This document shows positions 1 through 22,261 of a stretch of 64,000 bases of DNA, piece after piece. Made by a program: the position numbers and the translations under genes. The stretch lies in the NCBI GenBank assembly GCA_965178125.1, contig OZ237762.1, positions 124,001-188,000 of the forward strand, in the 5' to 3' direction. This DNA is from Bilabrum cf. latius. Its lineage: Eukaryota. Position 1 is the stretch's first letter. Each line of letters starts with the position of its first letter. The notes under the pieces are model-generated. The model was not told the origin of the DNA and did not search any database. It was given only the letters and a program-made list of their open reading frames with translations.

Positions 1-1623
1 AAGGATTATATTGTCTTTTTAGATGAGTTTAATAGTATCTTAGAACACTGTTTAAGTTCTACGACTTTATATGGTAGGCGACCAATGAGTTTCATTACTC
101 TTATTCGTGCTCTTACCACTTGTAAGTAGTTCATAGTAGCAGATGCTGACTTATCTCAAGATGCTCTATATTTCTTAGAATTATTAAAATTAGATTATCA
201 ATATATTAGGAATGACAGAAACAGGTTCAAGGGCACCAAAACTGTATTTGTTAATGACGAACAGACTTTTAGAGATGAGTTAATGAAACACAAGAAATTT
301 ATGCTTGCTAGTGATAGTAAGACAAAAGCTGATATAATCAATGAGTTAATTAGTCTTAAAATTATAGATAACGAGAAAGATAAGAAATTAAATAAAATCT
401 TAATACTTACAGCAGAAAGCGAAGACAAAGACTATGATATGGATATGTTTGATATCATTATCTTCTCACCTAAAGTCATTTACGGGATAGATAGCACTAT
501 GACTAGACCAGTCTTTGGTTATTTCAAAGGTCATACTATCACACCTCCCCAAATGGTTCAATAGCTTAACAGATGTAGAAACCCATCACATATCACTATA
601 TTTTTTGATTACTAGAAAGGACGATCTAGCACATATGAAAGTCTTTCACAAGTTAAATCTTTTATGGCTACCTCTTTAAAAGACTACGAAGAATTAGTTA
701 AATTTGTCAGTGATACATATCCCGACTTCAACGAGGTAGAAGTAGAAGACAAAGTAGAAGAAGAAATGAGCAAAGTTAAAATCATATTCAAAAAACTATA
801 TCGTAATTATCTTTACAAGGTAGATTGTTATAAGACAAACCCTAAATTACATATGATCAAGTAGTTAATTGATACCGGTTATGACGTGTCTTATGATTTA
901 TCTGTTAAGATCACCAGATGTAAGGATAAAGAAATCAAAGATACCATTAAAGAAAAACAACTTGAAAATTTTGATATTAATTGTCTTAATGTCAAGAAGA
1001 TTAATAAATATTTAGACTTAGATGAAGGTGATATTGACAAATACAAAGAGTACTTTATTAATAAAGGTAAGTTATCTAATTTATTTAATTTCAATAAATT
1101 CTTTAGACAAGATGATAAGCACTTACTTGTGAAAGCAATTAATAAAGGCGAGTTTGATATTATCAATGCTAAGTCTAGTTCTAGAAAATTAGTCTTACTT
1201 AATAAGATGATTGATACTTTAGGTCTTAAAAGAACTAATCTTGATTATAATATCAAAAAGAAAGTATTAGATCAAGACTTAACAGATGAATATAGGACAG
1301 TGTATGACTGCCAAAGAAGAAGTAAAGTTGACTTATCCACTGATAAAGGTCTTTATTACGAAATACTTAAAGTATATAAATCAATGTTTGGGAAAGACAT
1401 ATTTATGACTTGTAAGAAAAAGAAAATTAACTATGATGTAGAATTTAATTAGGATATTATTGATGAGATGGAATATATCTGGTCTAACAAGAAAAAGACT
1501 CGTGAAGTAGATATATTTGTTGATGATGAAGAGGTTCAATTACCCGATGAAGAGATAGAGGTTGACTTAGACCCCGCTTTATTTGTTGATGAGGATAATG
1601 ATCCACTAGAACAACAAAATTAA
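1..1623 (+). CDS. SF2 helicase, origin-binding-protein (herpes UL9-like) type; 5'-truncated; TAG=Gln
   Basis: Frame 1 is open from base 1 to TAA 1621-1623 except TAGs at 127, 562, 613, 862 and 1450. Motifs: YIVFLDEFNS (Walker B), CK*FIVADAD, FSPKVIYGID, QMVQ*LNRCR. Confidence 0.8.
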
Positions 1624-2066: not shown

Positions 2067-2204
2067 AAAGTAATAAACTAGTCTTAAGATATGACCGCCC
2101 GAAATTGCGGTAATATTATAGCTATTTAAGATATATTTCCGCAATTCTGGGCGCGTAGGTGTATTGAATTTTTAAATTTATTTGAATATAATATTTTTTA
2201 CCTC

Positions 2205-2527
2205 TTGGTGCGTTGTGGTCTTGGTCTAGTGATATCGTGATTGTTTCACAAAGTCAAGGTCGTGGGTTCGATTCCCGCCACTGACATCGCCGTAAGTCGT
2301 TCTGTAAGTCATTTTCATGACAAAGCACACGTCTTGCAAGTCTTTGAAGGGAGTTTGGATACTGTAGAAGTAGTCGTAAGTGGTTGTAGCAGACTTAGTC
2401 GTAAGACTTAATAGGGTTTCAGGTGCATCAGTTCACATTCTGGCCCCGCTACAACAATGACTTACGAATGACTTCGCCAAGTAGTCAAACCATCGGTATA
2501 ATTACTAGCTCAAAGAATTTTTTTTTT
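2205..2527 (+). ncRNA. tRNA-like, putative Pol III structured RNA
   Basis: A-box-like TGGTCTAGTG at 2222; T-arm GTGGG-TTCGATT-CCCGC at 2262-2278; imperfect long inverted repeat at ~2294-2313/2456-2474; T-run at 2518-2527; locally higher GC; no ORF. Confidence 0.55.
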
Positions 2528-2661
2528 ATTACATAGATATGACTTAATATTAATAACTTTATTATTAAGACATATGACCGCCCGAAATTGCGGTAATATT
2601 ATAGCTATTTAAGATATATTTCCGCAATTCTGGGCGCGTACCCGTATTGAGTTTTTAATAA

Positions 2662-3084
2662 TTAATCCATATTAGGGGGTTTCTTATACACGCTAGCAGG
2701 ATCAAAAATATCCACTGGAAAGTCTGCTTTGTGCCATCCCCATACTACTTTATAAATATCTGTGCTCGTGTCGTGTTCAACTTTATGATAAAAAATACAA
2801 TCATAAGCAATACCATTCTAATTACGCACCTCTTGCTCCATCTCTTCAATTATCTATCCTACCTTTAACTTTGTAAAGCCTCCTTCACTTACATATGTCT
2901 TTATATGACCTCTATTATTTACTTGTATCTAATCTTTATCTATTACAATGTCTTCAGGATCTCCTTCAAGTTCATCATCTAAGTAAACCTTTTGAGATTT
3001 AAGTGTTGGGTCTTCTCTATGTGGTAAGAATAAGAATGAATACTCCATATAAAGTAAGTCTTCACACGGTGATACTGCTGCCAT
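2662..3084 (-). CDS. Hypothetical viral protein, 140 aa (3 in-frame TAG)
   Basis: ATG 3084 has the same upstream motif as the ORF starting at 2036; ends at TAA 2662; bracketed by palindromic repeats. Confidence 0.7.
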
Positions 3085-3271
3085 AACTATATATATAGTG
3101 GATATTTTTTGGCGTAATATTTAAACTAGTCTTAAGGTATGACCGCCCCAAATTGCGGTAATATTATAGCTATTCAAGATATATTTTCGCAATTCTGGGC
3201 GCGTACCCGTATTGAGTTTTTAAATTTAGTCAATATTTATAACTTTTAAATATTAATTAATAATTTACGAC

Positions 3272-5158
3272 TCACATATTGAGCTACTTTCTAAGTTTCA
3301 TAAGTTGAGCCTTAGTTAGTTTCTTACCTCCACTGGTCAAAAGACTTCCACCACTAGTTAAAAGACCTGCTCCAACACGTTCAGCTAAGTCATTCACTTC
3401 ATCGGGTAAGTATTCACTTACTGCTTGTCTTGCTTTACGAAGAGCTGGTTTCACTTTATCAAATTTAGCTTTAGCGTTCTTTCCAAAGTCTACCACTTTA
3501 CGTCCTAAGTCTTTAGCTTTGTTAAAGGCTCTCTTAAAGAATTGCATCACTTTACGACGTCTTCCACCTAATACGTTCTTAGAGTAGTTCATATTAGAAA
3601 ATGTATAATTAGAAGGTTTAGCCACTTTCTCAGGGTCAACAGAAGCACTATCTTCACGCCATTCAATAGCGGCACCTCTAGTATTCACGATAATCTTGTC
3701 ATAGGCACAGAATAATTGAGCTTTATATCCTTGAGACATAGCAGCGGTTGGGGGTTCGTCATAGGCTACTTGAACACGAATACTAATAGGGTCAGCACTG
3801 TTGCTTTGAATAGTTTCAGGAGTATTTAAATCACTAAGTCTAAATAAGAGCCAGCCATTAGATCCGTATACTTTAGAAGCACCTCCTACAGTTACATCTA
3901 AGTTAGTAAAAGAAGCATACTCACTATTTGATCCATTTCTTTCACTAAGTCTAAAGATATCGTCTTGTGTAAGTTCTCCTAAAATAGAACCCTAAGACCT
4001 AAGTTGTACTTTAATATTGTTAATGGCAAGTGTTCTATGAGGTGTACCACTAGCTTCTCCATATTGAGAATCAACTAAGCACACAGCAAACCAAGAAGGG
4101 CAAGTCTAAAGTTGATAATTATTAAAAGTATGGACACCTTTAGTAGTGATAGGATTATCAAGTTTAGGCTCTTCATGTAGTTCAAAGTCAACAGAGTTGT
4201 AGAATATTTGTTTAGGTACTTTCTTCAAGAAGTTAAGATGAGTATTATAAGTAAAGACATCAAAATGGATCTAGCAATCGGATAAAGCAAAAGCATAGTC
4301 TCCATTCCAATCACTTGAAGTATTAAACATCTTATCAATTAAGTTATTTCTCATTTGTAAATTAACATTTAATTGTGGATGATCAACAAAAGGTCTAGCA
4401 TTACCACCCATCATATATTGGAAAGGACGTGCAAGAAGTGCTTCAGAGATTTCAATATGTAATTTGACATAGTCTTGAGTTGGTGTTACATTATTATTAG
4501 GTATTGGAGTATTAGCATCCACTTTTTCAAGTGTTGCGCGGTAATTCTTACCAGGACCGCGAGCTTCCATAATACTATCATCATTTACACCCCATTGAAG
4601 GACAGACTTAGCAAGACCATTTGCGGCAGTATTAAATTCCCAAGTGTTATCAGCCTAAAAGACAGGACTTATTTGTGCTAGAGTGGCACGGTCAAGACTT
4701 CTAGCTATTAAATTGACTAATTGATAAGGTGATGAACTACGAGATAAGTCTCCCATTTTAACTGTGGAACTTGTGATCATTGAATTTACCATAAATGTAG
4801 AAGGGGCTACCTTATTGACGATATCAGTTTGAGCTACTGCTCCATTGTTCTAACTATCATAGATGTATACGTCAAATGAAACTCTTAGACGGGGATTACT
4901 GTCAGTCATTCCTTGATTTGATGGCACGACAAAAGTGTAATTACTTCTAAATGCATTAGTTGCGCTAGAGTTACCACCATCTGGTTCATAGTGGTTTTGG
5001 AACTTGGAAGAGTATCCAAGGGTAGTTCCTAGAGTAATAGCTTGACTATCACCCACAAAGTTGAGTTTTTCGTCAGCTATTTGAGTTACTGGTAGTTCTG
5101 AGACGTCATCTACGACTTTGCTTTGTGCTGCTACAGGTACATTATCCATATCAGACAT
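3272..5158 (-). CDS. Virophage major capsid protein, 628 aa (TAG=Gln)
   Basis: Track ORFs 4850-5158, 4271-4570 and 3284-3739 are in one frame separated only by TAG. Virophage-MCP-like segments (ISEALLARPF, NNYQL*TCPSW, LSERNG) and a basic C-terminal tail with GG sites; TGA at 3272. Confidence 0.88.
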
Positions 5159-5200
5159 TATAAATATATTAAGACTAAAGATATTTATTTATTTTTTACT

Positions 5201-6127
5201 TTAAGTTATTAACTTTTTACTTTTAAATAGAGCTTTTATATTAAGTCCTTGTCCAAAAGTAAAGGGTATTTCGTATAAGTTTCCAAAAGTATCTCTAAAA
5301 TACGGTACTATACTATAACTATTAAATGCTGATCTATAGAACTATTGCCATCTATGATTTCCTCCACTACTAAAGTTTATTTTAATAAAACTCGTTCCTG
5401 TTGTATTGTCTATCTTGAAATCACTTAAGATATTTTCACTTTGTATCTCTGTACTAGATGTACTTTTATATGATGGCGTAAATTCTGGAAGTATTGGAAG
5501 TGATGGACTAATAATTTGAATATACTCCATAGTAGGAAACTAATCTAAGGTAGAAGCACTCTATTCATTATATCCATCTAATAGATTTATATAAGTATCA
5601 CTCTTGATGTCTTTACCTTCATCGTCATATTCAAATGTCTCAAATATAGAGAATAAAGGAAAGTTAAAACTTAAAGTCCACGCACTTGTAAAAGCCGCTA
5701 AACGGGTGAAACTAAAAGTTTTAGTCTTACCGTGATATTCAAATACTATACTATCAGTTGGAATACTAGCATCTCCACATAAATCACTAAGAGTATTATT
5801 AAATTCATTAGATAGGGTCTTAAGACTATAATATAACGGCTTAGTTAAGACAATATTACGAGTGTAAGTAGTTCCATCACTCTTCTTCACAAACGACATC
5901 TTATAAATTGACTAATTATCGCTATTCTTTACTTCTTTACTTGCTACAAATAAAGGAATACGACATTTAAGAGTCCATCGGTCAAGTGATAATAAGTAGT
6001 TTTGTGAATTTGTCAAGATATTACCTTGACGCTGTTCATGTATTGATACTGGTCTATTAGTATTAATAGATGTTATAGTATCCTATGAGTTAATATAAAA
6101 GATATCTGGTTCTTGAATCTCCACCAT
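5201..6127 (-). CDS. Virophage penton (minor capsid) protein, 308 aa
   Basis: Lies directly upstream of the MCP. Motifs: NYLLSLDRW..RIPLFV, IISPSLPILPE, NILSDF, RDTFGNLYEI, IKALFKSK. Several in-frame TAG; TAA at 5201. Confidence 0.82.
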
Positions 6128-6487
6128 TCTATAACATTTATCAAGAAAATAAGTCTTGTCTAATGCCCCAAATTGCGGTAATATTATAGCTATTTAAGAT
6201 ATATTTCCGCAATTCTGGGCGCGTACCCGTATTGACTTTTTAAAAAAGTTTTTATTAATTATTTGACTCATTGAAAAAATCCAATATTCCGAAATTTTAA
6301 AAATTTAGTATCTTAAGATATAGTATAATACCAGCGCCCCAAATTGCGATAATATATTAGGATATTAAGATATATTTCCGCAATTCTGGGCGCGTACCCG
6401 TATTCATTTTTATATTTTAGTCTTTTTAATATGGCCACCTTATAGATATCAATTTTCAATATCTAAAAATTTATGGTATATGTCATA

Positions 6488-7036
6488 TTAACTAATTATC
6501 AAAGTAATAAGTTCATCATTATCTAGTCCTCCTCCATACTTTTTAAAAGCCTTCTTTAATTGACTATTAAACTAATCATTCGTCAAGTGATGGAATAATA
6601 TCCTGAGCACACACCACCTCCCGCATGTGGCAGAGTTATTTGATATTAATTGATTCTTTTGATTTGAATAGTCAACATTAATACCAGCATCTAATACGTG
6701 ATCTATTAGAAGACTACTTCTATCATATAGCTTCTATGGGTCTATGACTCCTCCTACGACTGGAATATGAGTATCAGGTAATTGACCATAACTATCCCAA
6801 AAATAAAGAGTATTCTTTGATTTATTAAATATGACCGCAGTATAATGACCGCTCATTGTTGCTCCTTCTACTAAGTTAGGATAATAAAGGACAAATAAAG
6901 GATTTTCATCTAGAAATTGTCTGATGTTATTAGTATCACTTATTTCTTCATACATTATAACTGGTATATGCTACTTTGTAAATGTAAAGTATAGTCTTTG
7001 TACCTCTTCAGGACTTAATGCAGTGGTTATATCCAT
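6488..7036 (-). CDS. Virophage maturation cysteine protease, 182 aa
   Basis: Catalytic triad motifs SGHYTAV, FWDSYG and ATCGRWCVLR; reads through TAGs to TAA at 6488. Confidence 0.88.
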
Positions 7037-7055
7037 ATACTTAATACTAAGAAAA

Positions 7056-8123
7056 TTAATATACGAACATCTATTTAGGACAAGTGATAAAATTATACGT
7101 CTTATTAATACATAGCCATCTATTACCTTCTCCAAACAATTTATAAACACGATTTATAAGACTTGCATCAAATCCTAAATATGCTTTCATTAAATATTTG
7201 CTAAATTTCCATAGATTTCTCTTAAATAAAATAATATTATGACTTTCCATGACTATTGACCTAGTATTCGCATAATCATTCGTTAAATGACTTATAACTA
7301 TCATATTTGTTGAGCTATGTCTTCCAACTTCACCTATACGCTTAATTAAGAATAACGCCCTCTACTTTTTATCCCCGTTTAAGGCTTCATAATCATCAAA
7401 TACCACCACAGAAGGACCCTATTTTGCCCATTCTTCATACAATGGAGTAGTGGTAAATGATGCCTTAGTCTTGTCTTTACTTGTTGGTTTCATTCTTTCT
7501 ATCTCTATCTCTCTTTTAATTAATTCATGAGGTTCTAATGACTTCTTTTCCTACCTAAAGAATATCTTTTCTTCTTTATATTTCCTCATTAAGTCATCAT
7601 AACTATCGTTTCTATCTACTGCTACTAATTTATCAATATCAATAAAATTACCATATTTTAAATAAGTTGGATTTGTTTCCTGTACTGGTGTAATGACTAA
7701 AACCCTCTTCTTTGGAATGAACATATGATAATACTTGAGTAAAGACTTAGCAATATAAGACTTACCAGCACCAGCCTAACCACTTAAATAGTGTATTTGT
7801 CTTTTGGTCTCATCATCAAAGAATGGGACTATTTCAAACTAACTCTTATCATCTATTCTTAACTCGTTAGTCTTTCTAACTAGTTTTTTATTTCCATTCA
7901 CTAGCTTACACATCTCTTCACGTAATGCTTTTTTATTCTTCTCATATTTAATTGCTCTCTTTCCATAATACTCTTCAAGTAAATCATCACTTATATCTTC
8001 TGGAGTTATGACTTTTTCCCCTACATCTTCACTAAAAAAGACGCTTTTGTTCCTCTTCTTGTGCTTGTATTCTCTTAAAGCAACTAAATGACTATTTGGT
8101 ATTTCATCGTATGATAATGACAT
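7056..8123 (-). CDS. FtsK/HerA-family (A32-like) DNA packaging ATPase, 355 aa
   Basis: Walker A G*AGAGKS (TAG at 7776-7778), Walker B VVVFDDYE, VGRH motif; TAA at 7056. Confidence 0.9.
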
Positions 8124-8268
8124 TATATACTATATGTTAATATTTATTATTTTTCTAATAATAAGTGGGTTTAAAAGGTATATTGTGAGAAGTAGCCATT
8201 TCAAATATTCATTTTAGAGTGCACAGTCTTAAGAATATGATTAAAATATCATATAAATATATAGAATT

Positions 8269-8790
8269 ATGGATCACAAACTTCTAATTTCAAAAAGATA
8301 TATTAAATCATTTTATAAGTACTCATGTAAAGTTAATTAGTACTATAAGAAAGCAGAAGAGTAGCGTAATATGATGACAACTGATAGAGTAGATTGCTAT
8401 ACTAATTATATGACTTGTCTGCTAATTGCTCGTAAGTATAGAGAATGTATTATCAATTGCAGTAAAAAGTACTATTGTGATATGAACTTTACGTTAAATG
8501 ATAACGGATATGTATCGTCTTCTTTGGATCACTTGAAAACACTTAACTTTGACTATGCTAATTCAATGAAAATAAATGAATGTATAGAACAATTTAAACA
8601 ATCCGTTGAGTGGGAAAGGTTATTTAAAAAAGACTTTTTTCAAATGTAGTTAATTTATGAATATCTAAAAATTTTCAGACTTAAGTGCTATTTACATGAC
8701 ATACGACCAGATAATCCCCTCCATCCGACAGAAACAGTTAATAAACTTAACGAAGAAGACATTGACGAGCTATTTTATAGTGACTGGTGA
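8269..8790 (+). CDS. Hypothetical viral protein, 173 aa
   Basis: ATG 8269, three in-frame TAG, TGA at 8788-8790 immediately before a palindromic repeat. Confidence 0.65.
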
Positions 8791-8984
8791 GACGACCGCC
8801 CCAAATTGCGGTAATATTATAGCTATTTAAGATATATTTCTGCAATTCTGGGCGCGTAGGCTGTTAGAGGTTTTACATTTTCGGGTCAATCTAATGAAAA
8901 TCTCACAATATAGGGCGCCCCAAATTGCGGAAATATATAAGTATCAAGAAAATTATGTCTGCAATTCTGGGCGTTTAGGTGTAT

Positions 8985-9803
8985 TCAATTATGTGAAACT
9001 AATTTAACGACCCTTTTATTGAGCTAGTCTTCTAAATATTTAATTATAATACTTACATCTTTACTATTGAACGTATTAAAGTATTGATATACTGGTTTAA
9101 TAAGTCCTAATTTACGTACATCATTCTTAAGTCTATCAATAACTCTATTTTTTAATTTAAATGGAACTGTTGGAAGTAATAAACTTTTTAATCTTGTAAT
9201 AGTCAAGTAAAGAAAGCCTACATCGGGATTCTTTATAAGTTGTTCAATCTCTTCCTGTTTCTTCTTTTGCCCTAATTCGTCATATATAACATCTAGTCTT
9301 TTTAATATCTTGAAATATTTTCGTTCTTTTTGTAAGTCTTTTATGTCATCTATCATCCTATCTGCTACTTGTTTAGGCTTCATTTTCAATATCTTACCTC
9401 CAATATCATATAATATACTAACCTCTTCAATATATCCAGTATAGACCCAACTTTCAACGAATATCATAGGATTATTCTACTATTTTAAAGATTTTAATAT
9501 TTTAGGTCTATTAGTATCAAGAAATGTATCTAAAGAGACGCCATTATCATCATATTCAACGTTATAAATATGTATTAATCTACTACCTCTTAAGGTCTTT
9601 AATTCATTTATAACACTATTGACATCAGACAATTTAACGGGAGAGTATAGGTCTATGTCTCCAGCCCAAAGTGAAAGCATATTATGAGTAAATGAATATG
9701 AACCATTTAAATAAATATCACTTCTATTTATTTTAAAAGACTTGAATATCTTATTATCAAATCGTGAATAATACTTTAGCTACTACTTTGTTAATTTAAC
9801 CAT
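8985..9803 (-). CDS. Putative nucleotidyltransferase-fold protein, 272 aa
   Basis: NGS-x13-DID motif (NGSYSFTHNMLSLWAGDIDLY); joins track ORFs 9480-9680 and 9024-9467 through TAGs; TGA at 8985. Confidence 0.6.
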
Positions 9804-9837
9804 ATATTAATAAGAAATATTATAGTTCTTTATTATA

Positions 9838-10281
9838 ATGGACGATTTCATAAGACAAAGACTATAGCAACTAGGTAAATCACCCTCTAATGCCAAAGTC
9901 AACAATTTAAAAGACGAATTTAAGCAAAAACTACTTGAATTATTTGAAGACTATCAAATGAATGGTGTTCAAGGTGGTTCAAAAGTTGGACGCTTTTTTA
10001 AAAAAGTAGGTCGTAAATTCAAGAAAGTAGGGCGAACAATTAAAAAAGGTATTAAAAGTAATGTAGGAAAGGCAATACGAACAGGTCTTAAGTTTGTAGC
10101 CCCTGAAGTTGGTGTCCCTCTTGATGCTGCACTTAAGACTGTAGGACTTGGAAAGGCTAAGCGTAAGAGGAAACCTAATCCAAAAGCTAAAGCAAGAGGT
10201 AAATTAGTGAGTGCGGTAATGAAGAAGTATGGCGTAAGTCTAGGAGAAGCAAGTAAAATATTAAAAGAAAATGGTATGTAA
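9838..10281 (+). CDS. Basic putative virion core / DNA-condensing protein, 147 aa
   Basis: K/R-rich after VQGG|S (possible protease site); C-terminus RGKLVSAVMKKYGVSLGEASKILKENGM; TAA stop. Confidence 0.65.
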
Positions 10282-10320
10282 ATTTAATAATATTATCTAT
10301 TATCATAATATAATTATACG

Positions 10321-11763
10321 ATGTCTAAAAAAAAAACAGCAGTATTGGAAGACTTACTCGATGGACTTGTGGAAAGTAGAGCCCCTACAAGTCAAGCAAG
10401 ACGAAAGGTAAGAAACGAAGAGAGAGCCATAAGAGCAGCTATAGGAGAAGCTAAACGAAAACAAAAAATTCAATTAGAAGAGGACTTTATGCCATTAGAA
10501 GAAAAGAGAAAATTAAAAAGAATAGCAAATCTTATGAAAAGGACTTTAAAAAGAGTTAAAGATAACAGTAAGAAAGGTAAAAAGTATAAAGTAGCAGATA
10601 TAGATCAAGTTGTAAGACTAGCTAAAGATAATGAACTACTTGATGAAGATGCTGAAGCTATTGCTAAGATGATATAGAATATTCCATATATGAACTCATC
10701 TAATACTCTATTTCAAAAAGGTAAAGCTGAGTCAAAACTTAACGACGCATTAAATAACTTATTTATTGAAGCAGAAGAGATAGACAATTTACCTAAAGAT
10801 GTCAAAGACTTAGAGAATGACTTAACAGTAGACTAGTTGAAGAAGTTTCTTAAAGAGAGAGGTGTAAGTGATTCAACTTTAAATGGTCTCTCTAAGGCTC
10901 AACTTAATTCAATGGCATCAAGACTTGTAAAAGTTAGACAAAGAGCAAAAGGAACACAAATAGTACCTCTATTAGAAAGATTAGGAGATAAAAAGTCAAA
11001 AGGCTATGCTTTGGAACGATTACGAAGCCAAACTGATCGAGTTAAACTAAAAAGAGATGTACTTAATAAAAGAATGGAAGCAATAAATGATATTTATAAA
11101 ACAAAAGCCACATCTAAAGCACCAGTACTAAAAGATAGACTTAAAGCACTATTAGGTGATGAATATGATGGTGTGCCAATAGATGATATGTAGTATTATG
11201 ATTTATAGAGCTTATTTCAAGATATTAAGACTGGAAGACAATCGGGACTTGACAGTAAAACTAGATTTGTAAATTTAAATAGAATCAAGTTTGATGACGC
11301 AAAGAAAGATATTGAAAGACAATTATCACTAAGAAAAAGACAACCAAACCCATTTAGTCGTGCAGAACCGTCAGGAACTCCACTTAAAGAAAGACTTAGA
11401 CGAGCTAAGGAAAAAGATCCAGACTTACGAAGAGAAGCCGCATTAAGTGATGTAATGAATGAAGCTGCTGAATAGATAGCAAGAGGTAATGAACCTTTAG
11501 ATGATGAGACAGAAGGGACACTATTAGAAAGACAACCAGATGGAGAATTTGTAGCAAGCGATGCAGGTGAAGATCTTGGTAAAGGTCAAGAAGCAAGAAC
11601 AAGAGCAGCACGAGCAGCACAAGAACGGGAAGAACAAGAACAAGAAGCACAAGGTCAATCATCTAGTGGAGCAAGTGAAAGTAAGACTGGTGAAGGTTCA
11701 GGTCTTAATAAGAGACTTGATACTCTAATATCTTGGTTAGATTCAAGATTAAGAAGTCTTTAA
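10321..11763 (+). CDS. Charged helical protein with a SAP-like motif, 480 aa
   Basis: Single frame broken only by TAG; LTVD*LKKFLKERGV resembles the SAP consensus; TAA at 11761. Confidence 0.7.
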
Positions 11764-12006
11764 ATGGTATATACTATAATATTTTAATTTAAAAATATTA
11801 CATTGTAAGAGGTGGCTATATTAAAAATGACTAAATTATAAAAATCAATACGCCTACGCGCCCAGAATTGCGGAAATATATCTTAATATCCTAATATATT
11901 ATCGCAATTTGGGGCGCTAGTATTATACTATATCTTATACTACTAACTTTTTAAAATCTCGTAATTTAAAAAAAAAATATCTAGTCTAGCTAATATAATA
12001 TAAGTA

Positions 12007-12729
12007 ATGGCAGGAATATACAATCTCTTAAACAAAAATGAATATGAATTAAAGAGTAAGTCTATTGAAGTAGAATCAATTAAAGCAGAAGGCTTTGATG
12101 GAGCCGCTAACTTTGGACTTAACTTCAATGGTCAATCACTACCCTATATTATGAGTGGTACTAATGAAGATGCTAAGTCTTTCACATGGAGAATAGGTAA
12201 AAACTCAGCATCAGCAGGTGCATCTATCTCAATTAATGTCGCAGGTGATGGAACTCAAACCAGTACTATGACAGCAACCAACTTCTTATCATTTACCGGT
12301 ACACATGTTGCATCTTGTAGTGATGTTGCTTCTAGTTTACCAGCTGGTATTGGGTCAGTGGTTACTCTTGATAGTGTAGTTAATAAAGGACCCACAACTA
12401 ATGAATATGTCGTAAGTCAAGCATCTCAACATTCACCACCTTTTGGAGTATATGTAGGAGAACACCATGATGATGGTAAAGTACTTGTGGCATCTTTAGG
12501 TGATGGAGCTGTGAAAGTAAATAAAAATGGAGGAGATGTAAGTGCGGGTGACTACTTAATAAATAGCTCTGATAGTGGATATGTCTACGCGCCTAATCCT
12601 CAACCAGTCTCTGTTGATTAGACTATTGTAGCAAAAGCTCTAGTAGATGAAGACTTTTCAAGTGGTACTTCTACTGATGCTAATGGAGTAGAATATAAAG
12701 TCGTACCTTGTATTTTCTTAACAGGATAA
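12007..12729 (+). CDS. Fibre/tail-like protein with a C-terminal chaperone-like domain, 240 aa
   Basis: FTGTH...SLGDGAVKVNKNGGDVSAGDYL...TIVAKAL...PCIFLTG resembles the C-termini of phage/NCLDV fibre proteins. Confidence 0.6.
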
Positions 12730-12772
12730 TTGAGTTTAATTATAGAAATATCTTTTTTATTAATATAATAAA

Positions 12773-13411
12773 ATGGATGGAATCAGTTCAAGCAGTGTCG
12801 TTGTAGGAGGTTTAAGTGTCTTACTACCTCTAGCATACTCTGGTGGTATGTCTTGTTGGTAGTGGTTATGGGATAAACCTTTACATAAACGTAAAAAAAT
12901 ATGTATCTGTGTGCCTGAAGGTAGTGGTAAGTCTACCGCTTGTCAAATATTACGGTCTAGTTCTAAAGACTGTTTACTTGTTGATTTAGATAGTACTCTA
13001 GGAGTATATGTCTAGGAGCCCGAATTACTTATGAAACTAGACGAATGTAAGTTAAAAAGTGATTGGGGTAATTATAATATACTTAATAGAAAAGCCAGTA
13101 AAGAAGCCCTTCAATGGGTAAAAGATAACTGGTTGAATGAAGGTAGCGAGAAGAGAGTAATATTCTTTACTAAAGAGTTAAGTCTAGCTAATGAGTTATT
13201 TAAAAAAGAAAGTATAGTTGTATGTCTTCCATCTAATTCACTATTCTAGAAGACTTTAAAGAATTAGAAAGTAGATAAATAGAAGTCTATGTTAGAAGAC
13301 CGTAACTCTTATATCAAAGAGTTGAACCCTTCTAGCTATTACATTTATAATACTTACGAATAGCTTCACGATAAATTGAGGAATTGCCTCTAGTTAGGGT
13401 ACCAAATATAA
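12773..13411 (+). CDS. Small P-loop NTPase/kinase with an N-terminal hydrophobic segment, 212 aa
   Basis: ICVPEGSGKST Walker A and LLVDLD; 7 in-frame TAG; TAA at 13409. Confidence 0.7.
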
Positions 13412-13567
13412 TACAAATAAATACAAAATAATACAAAAGTCAATACGCCTACGCGCCCAGAATTGCACAAATATATCTTGAATAGCTATAATATTTCCGC
13501 AATTTCGGGCGGTTAGATCCTAAGTTTAATTATTCCGCCAAAAAATATTTACTATATATATATAGAA

Positions 13568-13912
13568 ATGAACTTTAATAATATTTATAACATAAAAAGT
13601 TTGAACAATATATTAAAAAAGGTAAAGACAGCTTTTGATCAATTTTTTGATGGAAAGGACCTTCGTATTTGTGAAGTTGAAGAGCTAAAAGAAGTAGAAA
13701 AAGACTAGATTATTACCTACGAAGATATTAAGTCTATCCTAGGTCTTAAAATGGCTATGTTGCCTAAATATGAAGGAATGTTTTAGATGGCGCAAGATTA
13801 CAAAGATTTTCGTATTATTAATGGCTTACTTGATTTAGAAATTATGAATGAGTTAAAACGTGTGGAAAAATCAATACGCCTACGCGCCCAGAATTGCGAA
13901 AATATATCTTGA
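13568..13912 (+). CDS. Hypothetical viral protein, 114 aa
   Basis: Preceded by CGCCAAAAAATATTTACTATATATATA; its TGA stop lies inside the downstream palindromic repeat. Confidence 0.6.
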
Positions 13913-13994
13913 ATAGCTATAATATATCCGCAATTTGGGGCGGTCGTATCTAACCTGTCAATTTGTATTTTTATAATTAAAATACATACTGATA

Positions 13995-14501
13995 TTACAA
14001 TTTATAATCTAGACAAATATTGTCTGGTTGTTTAGAAGTATTACATAATAGACTTAACTTTTGATCTATTTCTTTTTCTACTCCTGTTTTAGTCTTTTCG
14101 TCTTCTTGTTCCATCTCTTGGACAGTCTCGTTGAATTTATCCACATCACCGTAAGTCTTTATAAATACTTGTTTTTTCTCGGACATCTTGATTTTGCTAT
14201 CCTCCACATATTGCTCTCCTTCAATATTACATAATATATTATTAAGATGGAGATAACTTTCTGCTTTGTCATCGTGATCTGTGCTTAATACTTCAACATA
14301 CTTTGTTTTAAATCTAAGTTCCAAGTTATGACGTATTTCACTCATATGTTTATGGATCTCTTTTGGGTCTTCTATTTCGCTCTCTTCATACATTGCTATT
14401 ATAGTACTTATGACATCACTAGGGTTTTCGTCTCGTATTTTAAGTATTAAACTAAAGACATCAAAGTATTCATTTAAAAACTTCCAAATTGTGTTTTTCA
14501 T
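13995..14501 (-). CDS. Hypothetical viral protein, 168 aa
   Basis: Open ORF with TAA stop; CCACTATATATATA upstream. Confidence 0.7.
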   Translation of the reverse strand: MKNTIWKFLNEYFDVFSLILKIRDENPSDVISTIIAMYEESEIEDPKEIHKHMSEIRHNLELRFKTKYVEVLSTDHDDKAESYLHLNNILCNIEGEQYVEDSKIKMSEKKQVFIKTYGDVDKFNETVQEMEQEDEKTKTGVEKEIDQKLSLLCNTSKQPDNICLDYKL

Positions 14502-14520
14502 TTACCTATATATATAGTGG

Positions 14521-15201
14521 TCATTTTAATAAGATATTTTTAAACTTTGTAAAGTTATCATGAATTTTATCACTATCACCCCAGCACACTTTAGCATACC
14601 ATAAGTTGCTGTCATACATATCGGTCTCATCAAAATGAAGATGTCCTAATACTCGCTTTCTCATTTTATCAGCGTGTGATTTACCTCTTCTTAAAGCATC
14701 AGGATAAGTCTAAGTATTCTTTTTGTTAAAATATACCTTTGTATCATTAATCTCTACACAATAAACATATTCAGGTTTATCACTCACTGTAAGATCACTA
14801 ATATTGATTTTTGGTTTTGGTTTCTCTTTAATTGGTTTCTCTTCAATGACTTCACTCACTACTTCACTACTTGTATCACTATATGTATCATTCAAATAGT
14901 CTTCCTCTTTATTATCCTCTATGTCTTCGCTATCTAATTCAACATCTTCCAATATAGCCTATTGTCGTTCTAATTGTGGAGGTTTTAACTAGATAGGTTC
15001 TATTTTAGACGGTTGTCTCACTAAATTTATAGTTGCTATCTCGTCCCCTTCATCATCTATTTCACCCTATAAACTTGAATAATGCTTGTTAATCCATAAC
15101 ATTTTTAAGTCATCACGAGACCACTTGTACTTTTCACTTAACTTGACTACTCTTTTTAGAAGGTCTTTATTTTTGTATCTTGTTATATTTAACAATTCCA
15201 T
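14521..15201 (-). CDS. Acidic hypothetical protein, 226 aa, with a possible degenerate DUF5754-like C-terminus
   Basis: ATG 15201 reads through TAGs to TGA at 14521. Confidence 0.65.
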
Positions 15202-15431
15202 ATACTTATTATAAATAATTTCTTTGACTTTGTTTTATATTAATATGGTAAATACTAGAAAAATTTAATATTTCAAAAGTCGTATCTATACACTGGCTAA
15301 CATAAAATGACATAATTATAAAAATCAATACACCTACGCGCCCAGAATTGCGGAAATATATCTTAATATCCTAATATATTATCGCAATTTGGGGCGCTGG
15401 TATTATGCCATAAAGTATATTACTAGATTAA

Positions 15432-17087
15432 TTATCTCTATCTATCAGAATAGTCTTTCGCAAGTGGTCGTATTTGGTCTTTCCCATAATCCTGTTCTAA
15501 TTTCTTACGGGTAATCCATTCATTAAACTTATTAGAATATCCCTTATATTTGACTAAATATTCAATAAGTCTATCTTTATTTTGTCTTTTATCTAAAAAC
15601 TTCTCTATTGTGTCTGGTTCTACTTCTAAACCTTCAACATCATCAATTTCGGGCTCTTCACTTTCTTTGTCTATGTCATCATTTACCTTATCTTCGTGTT
15701 CTACATTCTCTATCTTCTATAACTGTGAAGCATTAAAGAATCCAGTAAGAGGTTCTCCCTCTTTGTCCATTACTTTATATTTAATCCTCTACTTAGGATT
15801 TCTTGGTTTGGTCTTCTATCTAACAGTGAAGACTTCTCTAGACCAATTGAATAAATTCCCTTTAAACTTGTTCTTCTCAAGTAATACTCTAACTCTATCC
15901 CCTACATTAAGATCTTTATCATTCCCGTCAAAATTATTTGATAATTTCTTATTTTCAATTCTAGATCTAACTACTTCTAAATTTTCAGGTTTCATTGCTT
16001 CTATTGGAGACATTCCTATAGTGTTGTGTTTTCTCTTATTATAAGCTCTTACTAGTCTCTATAATGACGTATGCCAAACACCATCACTGTCATTCTTTAT
16101 AGCAAAGTCTTTTCTAATCTATTCTTTTATAGTCCTGTTAAGTCTTTCAACTGCACCATTAGACTATGGATTTCCTGCGATGGTGAATAGTGGTTTTATG
16201 TCATTGTCATTCATAAATTTAATATATGCCTCTTTATTAAACTCATTATCACTTAACATAACAGTCGGTTTTCTCCAATTAGGTTTCTTAAATAGTTTCT
16301 TCATCTCACGAATTATATTAACTAATGTCTTATCTTTTAATGAAATACTCCATAGGTATTTTGTGAATATATCCATTATATTTAATATCCAATTATAGCC
16401 GTCATTAGTGTCTGAATACTTTTGCATGTCTATTAAGTCCAAGGCGTAAATTGAGAAAGGCTTAGTAGGTACAAAAGAACTTACTGCTGACTGTTTAGGT
16501 CGTTTTTTCGTGAGCTAGTGTAGCATTTGGCCATTTAACCACTTTTCAACTTGTCTTCGTTTTATTCTCCTATCTTTTTGTCTAGCTAGGTCATATAACG
16601 CATCACGACTGACTACATTACCTTCTTCATAATATAGTTTCTTTAATATTGGCTTATATTTAAATTCGTCTTTCTTTGGTTTGTCTTCTATTTCTATTAA
16701 TTTACCGGTTGGTTTATTAAGTTTTTTTGTCTAAGCTTTAGTCATCTTATAAAAAAGGCGAACAAGGTTAGACTATTGAACACTAAAATGAACTTTATTT
16801 ATTAGGTTATACAAGGTAAAATAGTCTCCATCCTTCTATATTGAGTTAATAATCCCACCTCTTCTAAACAATGGCTTTCCCTTGATATTTGAGATGTACG
16901 ATATATAAGAGTATAAAGGTAGCTTTTTAATACTAGCTTTGGTGGTTGGCACCTCTTCAAACCCTTTATCAAGTAGTCCCTTAATAGTGGCGTCTAAATC
17001 ATCACTATCTTTTTGATTTTTTGTTGGCTTATCACCGTACGTGTATGATATTTTACCTCTAGTGTATGTCTTGCCTTTGTTTGACAT
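15432..17087 (-). CDS. Retroviral-type (rve) integrase with C-terminal chromodomain, 551 aa
   Basis: DLIDM, MDIFTKY, LSDNEF, P*SNGAVERLNRTIK, YNKRKHNTIGMSP, LNVGDRVRV; chromodomain IEKFLDKR...EYLVKYKGY...NEWI; TAA at 15432. Confidence 0.92.
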
Positions 17088-17185
17088 ATCTATATATATA
17101 TAGTGGCGAAAATAACTTAATAGAATAAAACACACATTGACTTAAAGATAAAACAACTAATAACAATATAAACCAACCTTAAACA

Positions 17186-17851
17186 ATGGTAAATTTCTCA
17201 AATGCAAAGATATACAGACTTTACTCACTTAATGATCCTTCAAAAGTATATTATGGCTCTACTTGTTAGACATTGAGCTAGAGAAAGGGAGGACACACAA
17301 AAGACTATAAGAATTATAAGAAAGGAGAATATCCTTTTATTACTTCATTCATTATTTATGACTTAGGTGATGTAAAAATTGAATTAGTAGAAAAATGTCC
17401 GTGCAAAGATAGAGAAGAGTTAGGCAAGATTGAAGGAGGGTATATCAGGAAATATAAATGTGTCAATAAGTGTATTGCAGGACGAACTAGAAAAGAGTAT
17501 TACAATGAGACAAAAGAATAGAGATAGAAAAGATGGAGAAAATACTATGATGATAATAGAGGCAATATAGTCGCTAAGCAAAGACTATACGCCGAAAAGA
17601 ATAGACATATTATAAATGAACGTCAAAATCTAAAGTATTCGAATAATAAAGAAATGATGCAGTAGTATAGAGACAAAAATAGAGACAAAATAAAAGAAAA
17701 TCATAAAAAGTACGAAGAAAATAATAAAGAAAAACTAAAAAAATATTCTCTTGACTACTATCACAAGAATAAAGACAAGATAAACGAAAGACGAAGACTT
17801 AAAAGAAAGCAATTAAAAGAATAGAAGTCTAAGGTTAAGACATCCACTTAA
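17186..17851 (+). CDS. GIY-YIG endonuclease, 221 aa
   Basis: AKIYRL...VYYGSTC*TLS*RKGGH...IELVEKCPCKDREEL...EGGYIR...CVNKCIAGRT; TAA at 17849. Confidence 0.88.
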
Positions 17852-17908
17852 TTATATTATTAAATATATGTAATTTAATAGTATATATTGGCGTTAATTA
17901 AACGAGTA

Positions 17909-18442
17909 TTACTTCTTATATTTCTTCTTTTTAGAGTAGCATGTAAAGCAATACCAATAAGTGGTATCAGGTTTTAATAGATACCTCTCGCACCTTTTAC
18001 ACTATTTGTATCCTTTCTTTTTGTAATAGCAACTAAGACAAGTCTTTTTCCAAGAGGTCTTTTCAATCCAGTCTTCGCAATCAGTGCATCTCTTTTTCTC
18101 TTTTAATATGTCTTCATTCATTTCGTGTTTGATGGACTTAATATGACTGCTATAACTTGACTTTTTAACAACACAAGAGCATACATCACAAGTCTTATAC
18201 ATACAAGCCTTATACACATCATGATCCTTTTCGAATGTGTTATTAATACATTCAGAACCTAATTTAAATATATCACCAGTTGGGGGATACTCAACGAAAT
18301 GAACTTCCTTAATTTGGTGATCACAGATACACTTTCCGTCTTCTTCTCTAGTCTCTCCAGCTGGTATTAATAGAGGGGCTATCTTATTCCAGTCATTAAT
18401 CTTTAGCTTATTGATTATGAAGTTACGACATTTATAGCACAT
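17909..18442 (-). CDS. Multi-zinc-finger/ribbon protein, 177 aa
   Basis: CICDH...LGSECI, a C2H2-like CDVC..HIKSIKH and repeated CxxC; TAG read-through gives YK*CKRC; TAA at 17909. Confidence 0.72.
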
Positions 18443-18599
18443 TATAATATAGTATATACTATAATAATATATTATTTTTAAGTCTAATTAAACGAGATGT
18501 CTTAAGCTCGATTCAAATTTGGGCGCCCGAAATTGCGGTAATATTATAGCTATTCAAGATATATTTCTGCAATTCTGGGCGCGTAGGCGTATTGACTTT

Positions 18600-19007
18600 T
18601 TAATTTAATATTTTTAATTGTTTCAGTCTTGCGTCCACTTTAGACCTATAGTCATCTAACCATTTTTCCAAAGTATCCCCTTTAACATACCTTTTTACAT
18701 CTAATACTCCATTGGCTAGTTTTGTTAAGTAGTCCTTAATAGCATTATCACTTCCCCATAAGATTTTATGACTGTGATATTTTGAGCTATTAGTATCGGT
18801 AGTCTTCCCGTGTCTTCGGTAGTATAGGCGTCGTCTTTTAGGGTCAATATGGTTATTATCTCCATACTTACCAATCAAATCAAAGTATTGAGCATATCGT
18901 GCATCACCAAAGCTAGTGATATACTTACCATTTTTGAATACATCATATTTCTTATTTCTACGAGTAGAGGGTTTATATTTGAATCCATCAATAATTATCT
19001 CATACAT
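18600..19007 (-). CDS. DUF5754-like protein typical of NCLDV/virophages, 135 aa
   Basis: STRRNKKYDV...SFGDARY..Y...HIDPKRRRLYYRRH...SKYHSHKILW. Confidence 0.7.
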   Translation of the reverse strand: MYEIIIDGFKYKPSTRRNKKYDVFKNGKYITSFGDARYAQYFDLIGKYGDNNHIDPKRRRLYYRRHGKTTDTNSSKYHSHKILWGSDNAIKDYLTKLANGVLDVKRYVKGDTLEKWLDDYRSKVDARLKQLKILN

Positions 19008-19015
19008 AATATATT

Positions 19016-19225
19016 ATGATACAAGATTTATTAACTTAGTATATTGTCGGTAAGACTTGTAAATTAGTTATTAAATAGGTGAAGACTACCAAGACATATC
19101 ATAAGACAAAATCATTTGTTAAGGACTAGTTAGAAGAAGTACTCAATACATTGATACAAGTTAAAGGACATTCTAAATATGAACACAAGATCAAATGGAC
19201 CACTTCAAGTGGTATGACTTAGTGA
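19016..19225 (+). CDS. Possible small viral ORF, 69 aa
   Basis: Open only if TAG=Gln (4 TAG); ends in TGA; no recognisable motif. Confidence 0.35.
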
Positions 19226-19296
19226 ATATGTAAAATTGAATACGGGTGAGCGCCCAGAATTGCAAACATAATTTTCTTGATACTTATATATTTCCG

Positions 19297-19371
19297 CAAT
19301 TTGGGGCGGTCATATCTGGAGATACAATTTGGGGCGGTCATATCTGGAGATACAATTTGGGGCGGTCATAT
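19297..19371 (+). repeat. 28-bp tandem triplication of one palindrome arm
   Basis: CAATTTGGGGCGGTCATAT(CTGGAGATA) at 19297, 19325 and 19353. Confidence 0.9.
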
Positions 19372-20638
19372 TTATTATTAGTTATTTTAAAATATCTCGT
19401 CAAGTGGTTAAGTCTTTTTGTGATATCCCGTTAAGTGGTCAATAAAATGAACGGTAAGTCAAAAAAATTAATCAAAATAAAGAAGTAGTTGATTATTAAT
19501 TATTGAAGACACCTAAGCGCCCAGAATTGCGACAATATCTCTTAATATCCTAATATATTTCCGCAATTTCGGGCCGTCATTTCTGGACATTTAATATAGC
19601 ACATACTAGAAATATCTTTATTACAAAATTACACCTCTATAAGATAACTATGTCAAAATTAACAAAATATAAAACTCAATACACCTACGCGCCCAGAATT
19701 GCGACAATATATCTTAATATCCTAATATATTACCGCAATTTCGGGCGCTAGTATTATACTATACCATATTTAATTATCCTATATTTTCCATTTAATCTAG
19801 TGATTAATCATTTCAAAGTAATACACTTGACATAAACCAGTTCATTGAGTCATTTTAAAGTCATCGTCAAAACATTTATCATTTTTAAGTTATCCCGCTT
19901 TGTATTCCTTTATATCATATACTCAAACAAAGGACTTTAACATATTTAAAGAATTATGAAAAATAAAAATCAATACACCTACGCGCCCAGAATTGCGGAA
20001 ATATATCTTGAATAGCTATAATATTACCGCAATTTCGGGCGATAGATTAAAGGATGTATTTTTAAGGGGATACCCTTATATTTGAAGTTTTGAAGAGATG
20101 ACATATAAAAGACTTTATAAAGTGATTAATATCTCCTTCTAGTTATATTTAAATATTCAATTATTTAAGTATAGATTGACAAGTAATAAAAAAAGAGATA
20201 AATTAAGTTGATATATTAGTTTAGTTTTATTTATTAATTTAAATTTTTCATTGGAAGTATTAAAAAGACTTTAATACTTCTGTCAATCTCTTTAAGTATT
20301 TATTTAGTTATTTTCTAAAGTGGTAAATGTCAATTGATACTTAAAACCAAATCATAATATAAAACTCAATACACCTACGCGCCCAGAATTGCGAACATAT
20401 ATTCTTAAATGACTATATATTTCCGCAATTTCGGGCGGGCATATCCTAAGACTTAGGCTAGGGATTCACTCAACAGATTAAGTAAAGTAAAGGTCTAACA
20501 GATAGACATTAACGGCGCGAAGGTATTAAATTAGGTAGATATATGAATAAATAGCTATTAAATTATTATGTTCAAGTGAAGGACATTATGAAGGACTACG
20601 GCTTAAGATGTTGTGAAGTGGTTAATATTGACCTCTTA

Positions 20639-20739
20639 TGTTATCCGCCAAAATGTGTGTAGTTTTTATATAAGTAAACTCTATTTCTACTATATAGTAG
20701 AAATAGAGTTATCATAACTCCACATTTTGGCGGATAACA
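20639..20739. repeat. Terminal branched hairpin of the virophage
   Basis: Perfect 19-bp inverted repeat at 20639-20657/20721-20739 enclosing a perfect 34-bp palindrome at 20677-20710. Confidence 0.9.
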
Positions 20740-21456
20740 ATCCTCGTCCACCCGGTGGAGTCGAATGCCGTGCTGCTGCCCCAGCCCATCAGTGGCCCGC
20801 TGGCCAGCTGCAAAGCCCCGCATCCTCGTGCACCCGGTGGGGTCGAATGCCGTGCAGCAGCCCCAGCCCATCAGTGGCCCGCTGGCCAGCTGCAAAGCCC
20901 CGCATCCTCGTGCACCCGGTGGAGTCGAATGCCGTGCAGCAGCCCCAGCCCATCAGTGGCCCGCTGGCCAGCTGCAAAGCCCCGCATCCGCGTCCACCCG
21001 GTGGAGTCGAATGCCGTGCAGCTGCCTCGTGCACCCGGTGGAGTCGAATGCCGTGCAGCAGCCCCAGCCCATCAGTGGCCCGCTGGCCAGCTGCAAAGCC
21101 CCGCATCCTCGTGCACCCGGTGGAGTCGAATGCCGTGCAGCTGCCCCAGCCCGTCAGTGGCCCGCTGGCCAGCTGCAAAGCCCCGCATCCTCGTCCACCC
21201 GGTGGAGTCGAATGCCGTGCAGCTGCCCCAGCCCGTCAGTGGCCCGCTGGCCAGCTGCAAAGCCCCGCATCCTCGTGCACCCGGTGGAGTCGAATGCCGT
21301 GCAGCTGCCCCAGCCCGTCAGTGGCCCGCTGGCCAGCTGCAAAGCCCCGCATCCTCGTCCACCCGGTGGAGTCGAATGCCGTGCAGCTGCCCCAGCCCGT
21401 CAGTGGCCCGCTGGCCAGCTGCAAAGCCCCGCATCCTCGTGCACCCGGTGGAGCCG
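20740..21456 (+). repeat. Host 82-bp GC-rich minisatellite, about 9 copies
   Basis: Unit starts at 20740, 20822, 20904, 20986 (internally shortened), 21105, 21187, 21269, 21351 and 21433. Confidence 0.95.
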
Positions 21457-22261
21457 AATCCGGGTGTTTTCCCCAGTCCGGGCTCACTGCCTGCTCTGCG
21501 TGGACCATACATCGTAAAACTTGTCTTAAATTGTCGATACGTGCTTCTAGGTCGGTGTCACGCAAGCTGATGTCTTACCAATACTTACATGTACCAACAT
21601 ATTAGAAATTGCTTCAGGCAGTGCTTATACAGACAGCTACTGCAAAATTGATCCCCGAGTTACGATAATATGGTCACAGATTATGCATGCTTGAACCATT
21701 TACCTGTTGCCGATGTTAGGGTATCTTACGAGTGGAGTGCGAGTGCTTGTTGGATGTGAGCGCGCACACACTGCTTGAATTCCGGTGCCACTTCGCAGCT
21801 ATAAGTGCGCGACTCGCTCAACGAAGGGCATTACTTATGCGCAAAAGAAGTCGCGGAGCATACACGCGCGATACTATCATACTAAAAGACAGAAGTGAGT
21901 TTGATTCAGTCAAGATGACTGGTGGTACCTTGATCGGATCAGCCTGCAGCCACACAGATTTTCCGGGCGCGAGAATCGTAAAGGCTTTTTCCCTAGTACA
22001 TGTACTGAATTAAGGACTCCAGATTTCTTCCTCATTTTGCAATTAGGAACTTTTGTACTAGCAAATTTTTGAGATATGCTCTCAATGTGTCTGTGGCCCG
22101 AAAGATTTGCTGGAGGTGGCCGTCGGCGTCATGATTTTCGCTTCGTGCTCGATGCCTGAAACCTCGATTTAGAAACAGCCAGCGGCAAACGATTCTACTT
22201 AGATAGACAAAGATAGTCCGAGGGCTCCGGATGGGGCCCCGCGGGGCAGAAAGGTTCGAAT

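Follow-up and report, generated by a model that had tools for sequence, protein, structure and literature searches.

What does a palindromic element of constant length do for a virus that carries it 17 times within 21 kb? The locus that raises this question lies in the genome of Bilabrum cf. latius (GenBank assembly GCA_965178125.1, contig OZ237762.1, forward strand, positions 124,001 to 188,000; these 64,000 nucleotides are referred to as the window), whose left part reads as an endogenous virophage. A preliminary description, made from the sequence alone, had noted the repeat and had named multiple origins or enhancers, recombination sites for module exchange and hairpins at transcript 3' ends as its candidate roles. 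The reading favored below is that of multiple origins, with the virus's own replicase as the proposed binding protein.

A search for the arms recovered the architecture that had been described, namely a 58-bp core of two inverted arms around an AT-rich spacer, followed by a 14-bp tail. All 17 copies carry, with 0 mismatches, two 12-bp inverted arms with exactly 32 bases between them, a pattern that occurred 0 times in 100 dinucleotide shuffles. A looser search (1 mismatch) returned exactly 17 right and 17 left arms, the extra matches being two left arms in a 28-bp tandem triplication and one chance match inside the integrase gene. There is accordingly no length variant among the copies. They align without gaps across 73 columns; 23 of the 24 arm positions are invariant, and the spacer varies in sequence at a fixed length of 32 bp (17/17). 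Its variants, of which at least three had been claimed, form at least four classes with 9, 5, 2 and 1 copies. The units, all from the arm search, are as follows.

2096..2167, + strand: copy 1
2579..2650, + strand: copy 2; site altered in a sister element (joints 2519 and 2571)
3144..3215, + strand: copy 3; 67 bp of head flank in common with copy 1
6164..6235, + strand: copy 4
6335..6406, + strand: copy 5; spacer class B
8797..8868, + strand: copy 6; at a convergent gene junction
8916..8987, + strand: copy 7; spacer class C, stop codon overlapped by the tail
11845..11916, - strand: copy 8; spacer class B
13440..13511, - strand: copy 9
13871..13942, - strand: copy 10; covers the last 47 nt of a 114-aa open reading frame (ORF)
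15325..15396, - strand: copy 11; spacer class B, opposite to the gene-direction trend
18524..18595, + strand: copy 12; a GIY-YIG-type gene stands in its place in a minor sister variant
19237..19308, - strand: copy 13; spacer class C, in the terminal non-coding region
19297..19380, - strand: 28-bp tandem triplication with two extra head arms
19504..19575, - strand: copy 14
19676..19747, - strand: copy 15
19970..20041, - strand: copy 16
20366..20437, - strand: copy 17; spacer class D

One arm pair is mismatched in 17/17 copies, and covariation lies below the shuffled level (499/500 shuffles were at least as high), so base pairing is not the property that is conserved. Each strand is predicted to fold at about -15 to -26 kcal/mol, with loops of about 6-32 nt. 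Of the earlier inferences, that of a site for a dimeric protein is supported. Invariant arms around a variable spacer of fixed length are what would be expected of protein half-sites.

The distribution also agrees with what had been reported. When TAG is read as Gln, 14 copies are wholly intergenic, and the tails of two others touch stop codons; five copies lie within the gene-free last 1.5 kb before the viral end (~20739), and none was found in the host DNA of the window (20740-64000). Seven copies up to 8987 are in '+' orientation, followed by nine in '-' and one in '+' (18524). This switch is real; since the copies were duplicated in blocks and are randomly oriented relative to genes in relatives, it is not evidence of function. 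A replichore explanation of the switch was rejected, as the GC-skew minimum at 9933 tracks the gene strand and the copies group into about 8 duplicated blocks. Rfam returned no family at the gathering score, and ARAGORN gave no match.

Replicase type and element geometry in relatives

The protein that would bind the copies is likely the virus's own Prim-Pol/UL9-like helicase, whose gene reaches into the window from the left:

1..1623, + strand: 3' part of the gene (start left of the window) for the 932-aa Prim-Pol plus UL9-like SF2 helicase, the proposed binding protein

A profile of 28 homologues has the origin-binding protein (OBP) of herpes simplex virus 1 (HSV-1) as its top match (E 2.4e-9). 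Prim-Pol matches are present in 27/28 homologues, with the domain related to ORF904 (E 1.2e-5), and the helicase part gives SF2-type matches. The predicted structure (pLDDT 81.8) aligns to OBP at residues 265-897, covering the helicase and C-terminal parts (Foldseek E 3.8e-13), with a structure-comparison Z of 16.9 against 14.5 for the next match. For the C-terminal 292 residues folded separately (pLDDT 83.6), the DNA-binding domain of OBP (547-813) ranks first of 48,161 chains and is the sole one with Z >= 5. The profile and the models show an enzyme homologous to UL9, with the homology extending weakly into the DNA-binding domain.

A scan of relatives, as had been suggested, gave a divided answer. 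The exact repeat, with spacers of 15-45 bp, has 0 matches in public viral contigs; one match in a metagenome contig, in GC-rich DNA and with a different spacer length, was taken as chance. With the capsid protein as a single query no viral contig was retrieved, and a word search gave only relatives at 86-88%. The architecture with a fixed span, instead, is widespread. It was surveyed in IMG/VR loci retrieved with this helicase (best 80 of 132), the virophage ATPase (best 80 of 283), and the capsid-like protein (best 80 of 195) and SF3 helicase (80 of 85) of the main Polinton-like group; merging of overlaps left 294 loci in 165 clusters, and the scan was run on the 226 loci that measure at least 9 kb. 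Every UL9-like lineage possesses its own family, with inverted arms of 11-20 bp, a variable AT-rich spacer and a fixed span.

This geometry co-occurs with the type of replicase. Taking one locus per genome cluster, a 45-62-bp family is present in 39/49 UL9-like clusters vs 0/49 SF3 clusters. At 3+ copies, the UL9-like clusters divide into 31 with short families, 3 with families of 67-72 bp and 15 with none (n=49), the SF3 clusters into 0 short, 10 long (84-129 bp) and 39 none (n=49), and those in which no replicase was seen into 5 short, 6 long and 36 none (n=47). At 2+ copies, short families occur in 32/49 UL9-like clusters and long-only ones in none, whereas SF3 clusters have 18 long-only, 2 both and 29 none (n=49), so that a longer family of 80-130 bp is present in 20/49 of them. 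Within one capsid group, a short family is found in 25/36 UL9-like vs 0/41 SF3 loci. A test for single sites separated the two types as well, both by locus (62/75 vs 13/86, with 2 and 0 in shuffles) and by cluster (41/49 vs 8/49, or 33 vs 0 for 2+ sites), and repeat-family scans of shuffled loci gave 0 matches in 82, 157 and 226 shuffles. No other gene family occurs in more than 24 of the 39 element-positive clusters (the loci are helicase-centered, and further genes could be located beyond their ends). There are 7 replicase changes on the capsid tree, each type bringing its geometry with it; among independent pairs, 5 agree and 0 oppose (33 rows with an element, p 0.0625), or 4 agree, 0 oppose and 1 ties with a second detector, and the virophages agree in 2/2, which makes 6-7 agreeing pairs overall and 0 opposed.

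Copy number varies widely. The UL9-like virophages L003 and L017 have one copy per 19-20-kb record, 22 bp behind the helicase stop, and others have two (L006), three (L007) or four (L005). Density is 8.2 copies per 10 kb in the present virus; in relatives, whose elements mostly have no tail, the median is 2.5 and the highest value 5.4. Several side observations concern these families. SF3-helicase virophages as well as Polinton-like viruses (PLVs) carry a second dispersed class of 80-130 bp, with arms often made of short iterated words (L107, L171, L255, L260, L263, L283, L296, L301, L302, L310 and others). An arm design of CCC, A/T tract and GC is common to several lineages, and one arm variant of L050+L181 equals the left arm of the window over 11 bases despite distant helicases. 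Two UL9-like virophages contain other repeats, a 25-bp tandem array with inverted copies (L003:9380-9620) and a unit of some 58 bp duplicated in tandem (L002:7176-7290).

Given the repeat, the homology of the enzyme with UL9 and the co-occurrence of geometry and enzyme across viruses, we consider it probable that the copies serve the Prim-Pol/UL9-like replicase as oriS-like sites for binding and melting, scattered in the manner of the homologous regions (hrs) of baculoviruses. Of the roles suggested at the outset, that of multiple hr-like origins is the one supported, as a probable function. In the mechanism that we envisage, the C-terminal domain of the replicase would bind the arms in double-stranded DNA, as its homology suggests; paired binding at fixed spacing would, as at oriS, bend the DNA and melt the AT-rich spacer; and the fused Prim-Pol would prime on the opened strand. 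Copy number is free, from 1 to 17, and copies spread as blocks of variable length are copied; like the hrs of baculoviruses, they may act redundantly, as origins or as loading sites. The high density in this virus may stem from amplification through template switching at the copies, with which the flanks shared in blocks (described below) and the 28-bp triplication agree.

Several observations weigh against this interpretation. On the protein side, the C-terminal match to OBP is middling (Z 5.7, root-mean-square deviation 4.9, 149 aligned), Foldseek gave nothing under E 0.001 for the C-terminal model, and neither the RVKNL motif nor the HSV box sequence occurs in replicase and arms, respectively. 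On the DNA side, 17 sites in 21 kb are far above the need of replication, the terminal palindrome would offer a separate priming route, and helicase-adjacent enrichment is weak (31/57 vs 114/282 junctions, p 0.057). No copy was found in L002 or L004, partial records from the helicase clade of the window, nor in the UL9-like L012 or L027+L082 (21.4 kb), and a palindrome of 47-51 bp was scored in two SF3 clusters as well, within arrays of iterons. The independent-pair tests singly reach p 0.0625, 0.125 and 0.5, their pooling being post hoc. Agreement of the arm sequences with the helicase tree (rho 0.27, p 0.0005; 32 clusters, without L014) is no better than with capsid trees; partial tests were mixed, and in Mantel tests the histories of helicase and capsid could not be told apart.

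It is tempting to extend the idea, at a level that we regard as possible but unlikely, to virophages and PLVs as multi-origin replicons. Their origin design would be set by, and replaced with, a swappable replicase, two-box sites of short span going with UL9-like SF2 and long sites with iteron arms going with SF3, and here the origins would have been amplified until every block of one or two genes is bounded by them and can be copied, lost or exchanged as a unit.

Gene neighborhood, spread of the copies and rival explanations

The strongest competitor, which we nevertheless consider improbable, is that the copies are recombination sites for the exchange of gene modules, either attC-like or as plain homology for template switching. 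It draws on the history of the element. Public contigs (three runs, two studies) carry a near-identical element with a different host flank after 20739; since contigs from the three runs break inside copies 3 and 5-11, this assembly did not create the copies as an artefact. Run X7 yielded no long contig of the element and does not count as evidence. Within sub-families the spacers are identical and flanks of 1-84 bp are held in common (up to 67 bp on one side and 84 bp on the other), and a 5-6-bp target-site duplication is found in 0/17 copies, with no fixed ends; the varying flanks and the missing duplication indicate that copies spread block by block and not in the way of a transposon with defined ends. 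Copies also delimit blocks of one or two genes, and in minor sister contigs two copies of the same direction enclose unknown sequence (joints 2657->8793 and 3222->8793). Besides the altered site at copy 2, a minor sister variant runs from 18490 through a divergent GIY-YIG-type gene to 18609, replacing copy 12 (18491-18608).

Whether gene-content breakpoints fall at the repeats had been proposed as a check, and those of the sister elements do so in part, not exclusively: other joints lie inside genes or at a promoter-type motif (10825->11411, 2057->17888). A polymorphic GIY-YIG-type gene (17186-17851) is missing in the major sister variant, with the joint at such a motif. Integron attC sites stand one behind each gene, in gene orientation and with variable length. 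The copies depart from this: their length is fixed, and orientation shows no link to gene direction in relatives. No tyrosine recombinase is seen among the 20 ORFs (the left end of the element lies outside the window). Furthermore, the single copy of L003/L017 cannot delimit cassettes, and geometry tracks the replicase, whereas a family common to both groups does not explain it. The recombination-like traits may have arisen as a by-product of origins at these positions. As a separate observation, patches dense in differences from the sister (2417-2445, 2691-2737 and 15377-17089), among genes that are mostly nearly identical, look like mosaic exchange; an inversion behind two of them was rejected (best 15/30 and 13/30).

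Less probable still are transcription signals, either 3'-end hairpins of the giant-virus type or promoter/enhancer cassettes read by a helper virus. In same-direction junctions of the window the tail faces the upstream stop in 8/9 copies, and for 6 ATGs the head of a copy is no more than 100 bp away. Convergent junctions are somewhat enriched in relatives, where copies occupy 19/29 of them, 105/246 tandem and 21/64 divergent ones (33 clusters), and the predicted folding of the strands would suit hairpins. Against this stand 9/20 window genes with no copy at the 3' end, 13/19 with none within 100 bp of the start, the five copies of the gene-free end, the occupied divergent junctions, the single copy of L003/L017, the absence of compensatory changes in the arms, and an orientation unrelated to gene direction in relatives (51/75 concordant vs a null of 52.7, p 0.81; 19 genomes). 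The giant-virus hairpin rule asks that almost every transcript end carry a near-perfect stem whose loop is no longer than 5 nt; the loops and the uncovered genes found here depart from it. The rule is named in PMC11814242.

At the same low level we place a selfish element resembling a miniature inverted-repeat transposable element (MITE), without function for the virus, which the replicase or a nuclease might copy. The unusually high copy number, the recent near-identical sub-families and the presence or absence of copy 12 against the GIY-YIG-type gene would suit it, and pithoviruses are known to have palindromic repeats that resemble MITEs (PMC10664404). Opposed to it are the missing 5-6-bp target-site duplication and fixed ends, the lack of copies in adjacent host DNA and, in each virus lineage, an own sequence with low and stable copy number, conserved arms and free spacer. 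Taken together, terminator, promoter, attC and MITE readings are disfavored because copies occur in all junction types with, in relatives, no link to gene direction, and show no compensatory pairing and no 5-6-bp target duplication. Least likely of all is another dimeric protein (a small viral ORF, or a host or helper-virus factor) acting in packaging or chromatin, since none of the remaining gene families goes along with the element (the best shows a difference of 0.23 and is present in 9/39 positives; loci partial), although several small ORFs are unannotated and any dimer would suit the dyad symmetry.

The endogenous virophage and its genetic code

Bases 1 to ~20739 have a GC content of 27-39%, against 51-72% beyond, and represent the right part of an endogenous virophage. 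Under table 11 the viral genes are broken; with TAG read as Gln, 20 ORFs are open and terminate only at TAA or TGA. Codon counts in the virus are 76 for TAG, 122 for CAA and 10 for CAG, and TAG codons of the helicase sit on conserved Gln columns (21/24 and 24/25 homologues). Decay by C-to-T change was rejected as the origin of the TAG codons, given these conserved columns and the exclusive use of TAA and TGA as stops. Pfam matches among the ORFs include the virophage major capsid, protease, ATPase and rve integrase with chromodomain.

3272..8123, - strand: genes of virophage morphogenesis, for major capsid, minor capsid, protease and packaging ATPase (genomic context)
15432..17087, - strand: rve integrase with chromodomain, from Pfam (genomic context)
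20639..20739, no strand: terminal palindrome of 101 bp at the virus-host junction (z -12.3), of distinct sequence and not a repeat copy

The outer edge of the terminal palindrome coincides with the loose end of the public contigs at 20739. Because long ORFs of the host (22262-64000) likewise read through TAG, the host probably shares the code with the virus; a literature search for a TAG = Gln code in bicosoecids gave nothing. Several further features were observed. The host flank at 20740-21460 is a GC-rich tandem repeat with an 82-bp unit. CCGG, GGCC, CATG and TCGA are rare in 1-20740 (0.30-0.36 of expectation), which suggests avoidance of restriction or methylation. The motif TATATATATAG stands 1-4 bases ahead of the ATG in five genes (2039, 3087, 13553, 14506 and 17092) and is a candidate promoter class; CGCCAAAA is often found upstream of it, and the same short word recurs in the terminal palindrome. 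Between copies 1 and 2, a tRNA-like stretch (2212-2290, + strand) shows a T arm besides motifs that resemble A and B boxes. ARAGORN was negative on it; it gives a weak tmRNA-end match, and a change in a sister at 2277 perfects the T stem; a polymerase III RNA is possible.

Comparison with known systems

For replication start in virophages and PLVs that lack pPolB, prior proposals have been terminal repeats, put forward as origins in PMC11296320, or terminal hairpins. Fusions of AEP and SF2 are already known, as are repeats bracketing replicases (10.64898/2026.10.13.758929), and PMC8547959 gives, in its text, promoter motifs only. The article texts covered (among them PMC8547959, PMC10120064, PMC11296320, PMC4722103 and 10.1101/2022.07.28.501842, with subscription papers, figures and supplements outside) mention no dispersed two-box elements in virophages or PLVs and no link to replicase type; the motif figures of PMC8547959 and the supplements of 10.64898/2026.07.28.741278 and 10.64898/2026.10.13.758929 may show such elements. 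A report of palindromes in Dishui Lake virophage 1 was looked for, with 0 occurrences. The survey provides dozens of candidate pairs of an enzyme and its own site and a rule by which site span predicts replicase type. It would link herpes-type origin recognition to small protist viruses, and it raises the question of how several dispersed sites are rewritten after a replicase swap.

Among more distant palindromes, pithovirus M1/M2 are likewise intergenic repeats of a protist virus (PMC10664404), but measure about 140 bp and cluster by hundreds, neither of which is seen here, and carry a TA duplication. The palindrome at the viral end in the window, with its non-pPolB replicase and rve integrase, resembles the terminal palindromes of Halocafeteria virophages and PLVs; those are terminal only (10.64898/2026.07.28.741278), whereas the 17 copies have internal positions and differ in sequence.

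Three origin systems come closer. Baculovirus hrs are dispersed, intergenic, imperfect palindromes, species-specific and redundant, and have been proposed as origins or enhancers (PMC6669502). Their cores, however, are palindromes of 28-30 bp that stand in tandem clusters and bind IE-1, whereas the copies are single 58-bp units with a 32-bp spacer and a link to the helicase, and the 20 window ORFs contain no match to the IE-1 family. The pRN1/BIP-1 origin, served by ORF904, shares a related Prim-Pol, inverted arms with a long loop, and a structure kept while the sequence diverges (PMC4234260). A comparable placement, as a single copy 3' of the replicase gene, is seen only in L003/L017; at about 100 bp and with a Prim-Pol-SF3 enzyme, the pRN1 origin matches the long class of SF3 viruses, in contrast to the 58 bp, SF2 helicase and 17 copies of the window. 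Finally, in HSV oriS an AT-rich spacer separates two inverted boxes, and a 6-bp deletion there abolishes replication (PMC12543377). As with oriS and UL9 of HSV-1, inverted boxes enclose an AT-rich spacer of fixed length, and a UL9-family SF2 helicase is encoded by the same virus. The box sequence, however, is unrelated, RVKNL is absent, the proposed initiator is fused to Prim-Pol, and up to 17 sites are dispersed over 21 kb where HSV has few origins; no clear hairpin partner like Box 3 of oriS is seen, the tail being conserved but not an inverted copy of the neighboring arm. The element is not specific to the window, and we suggest that it is best read as a variant of known origin designs, unusually amplified in this virus.

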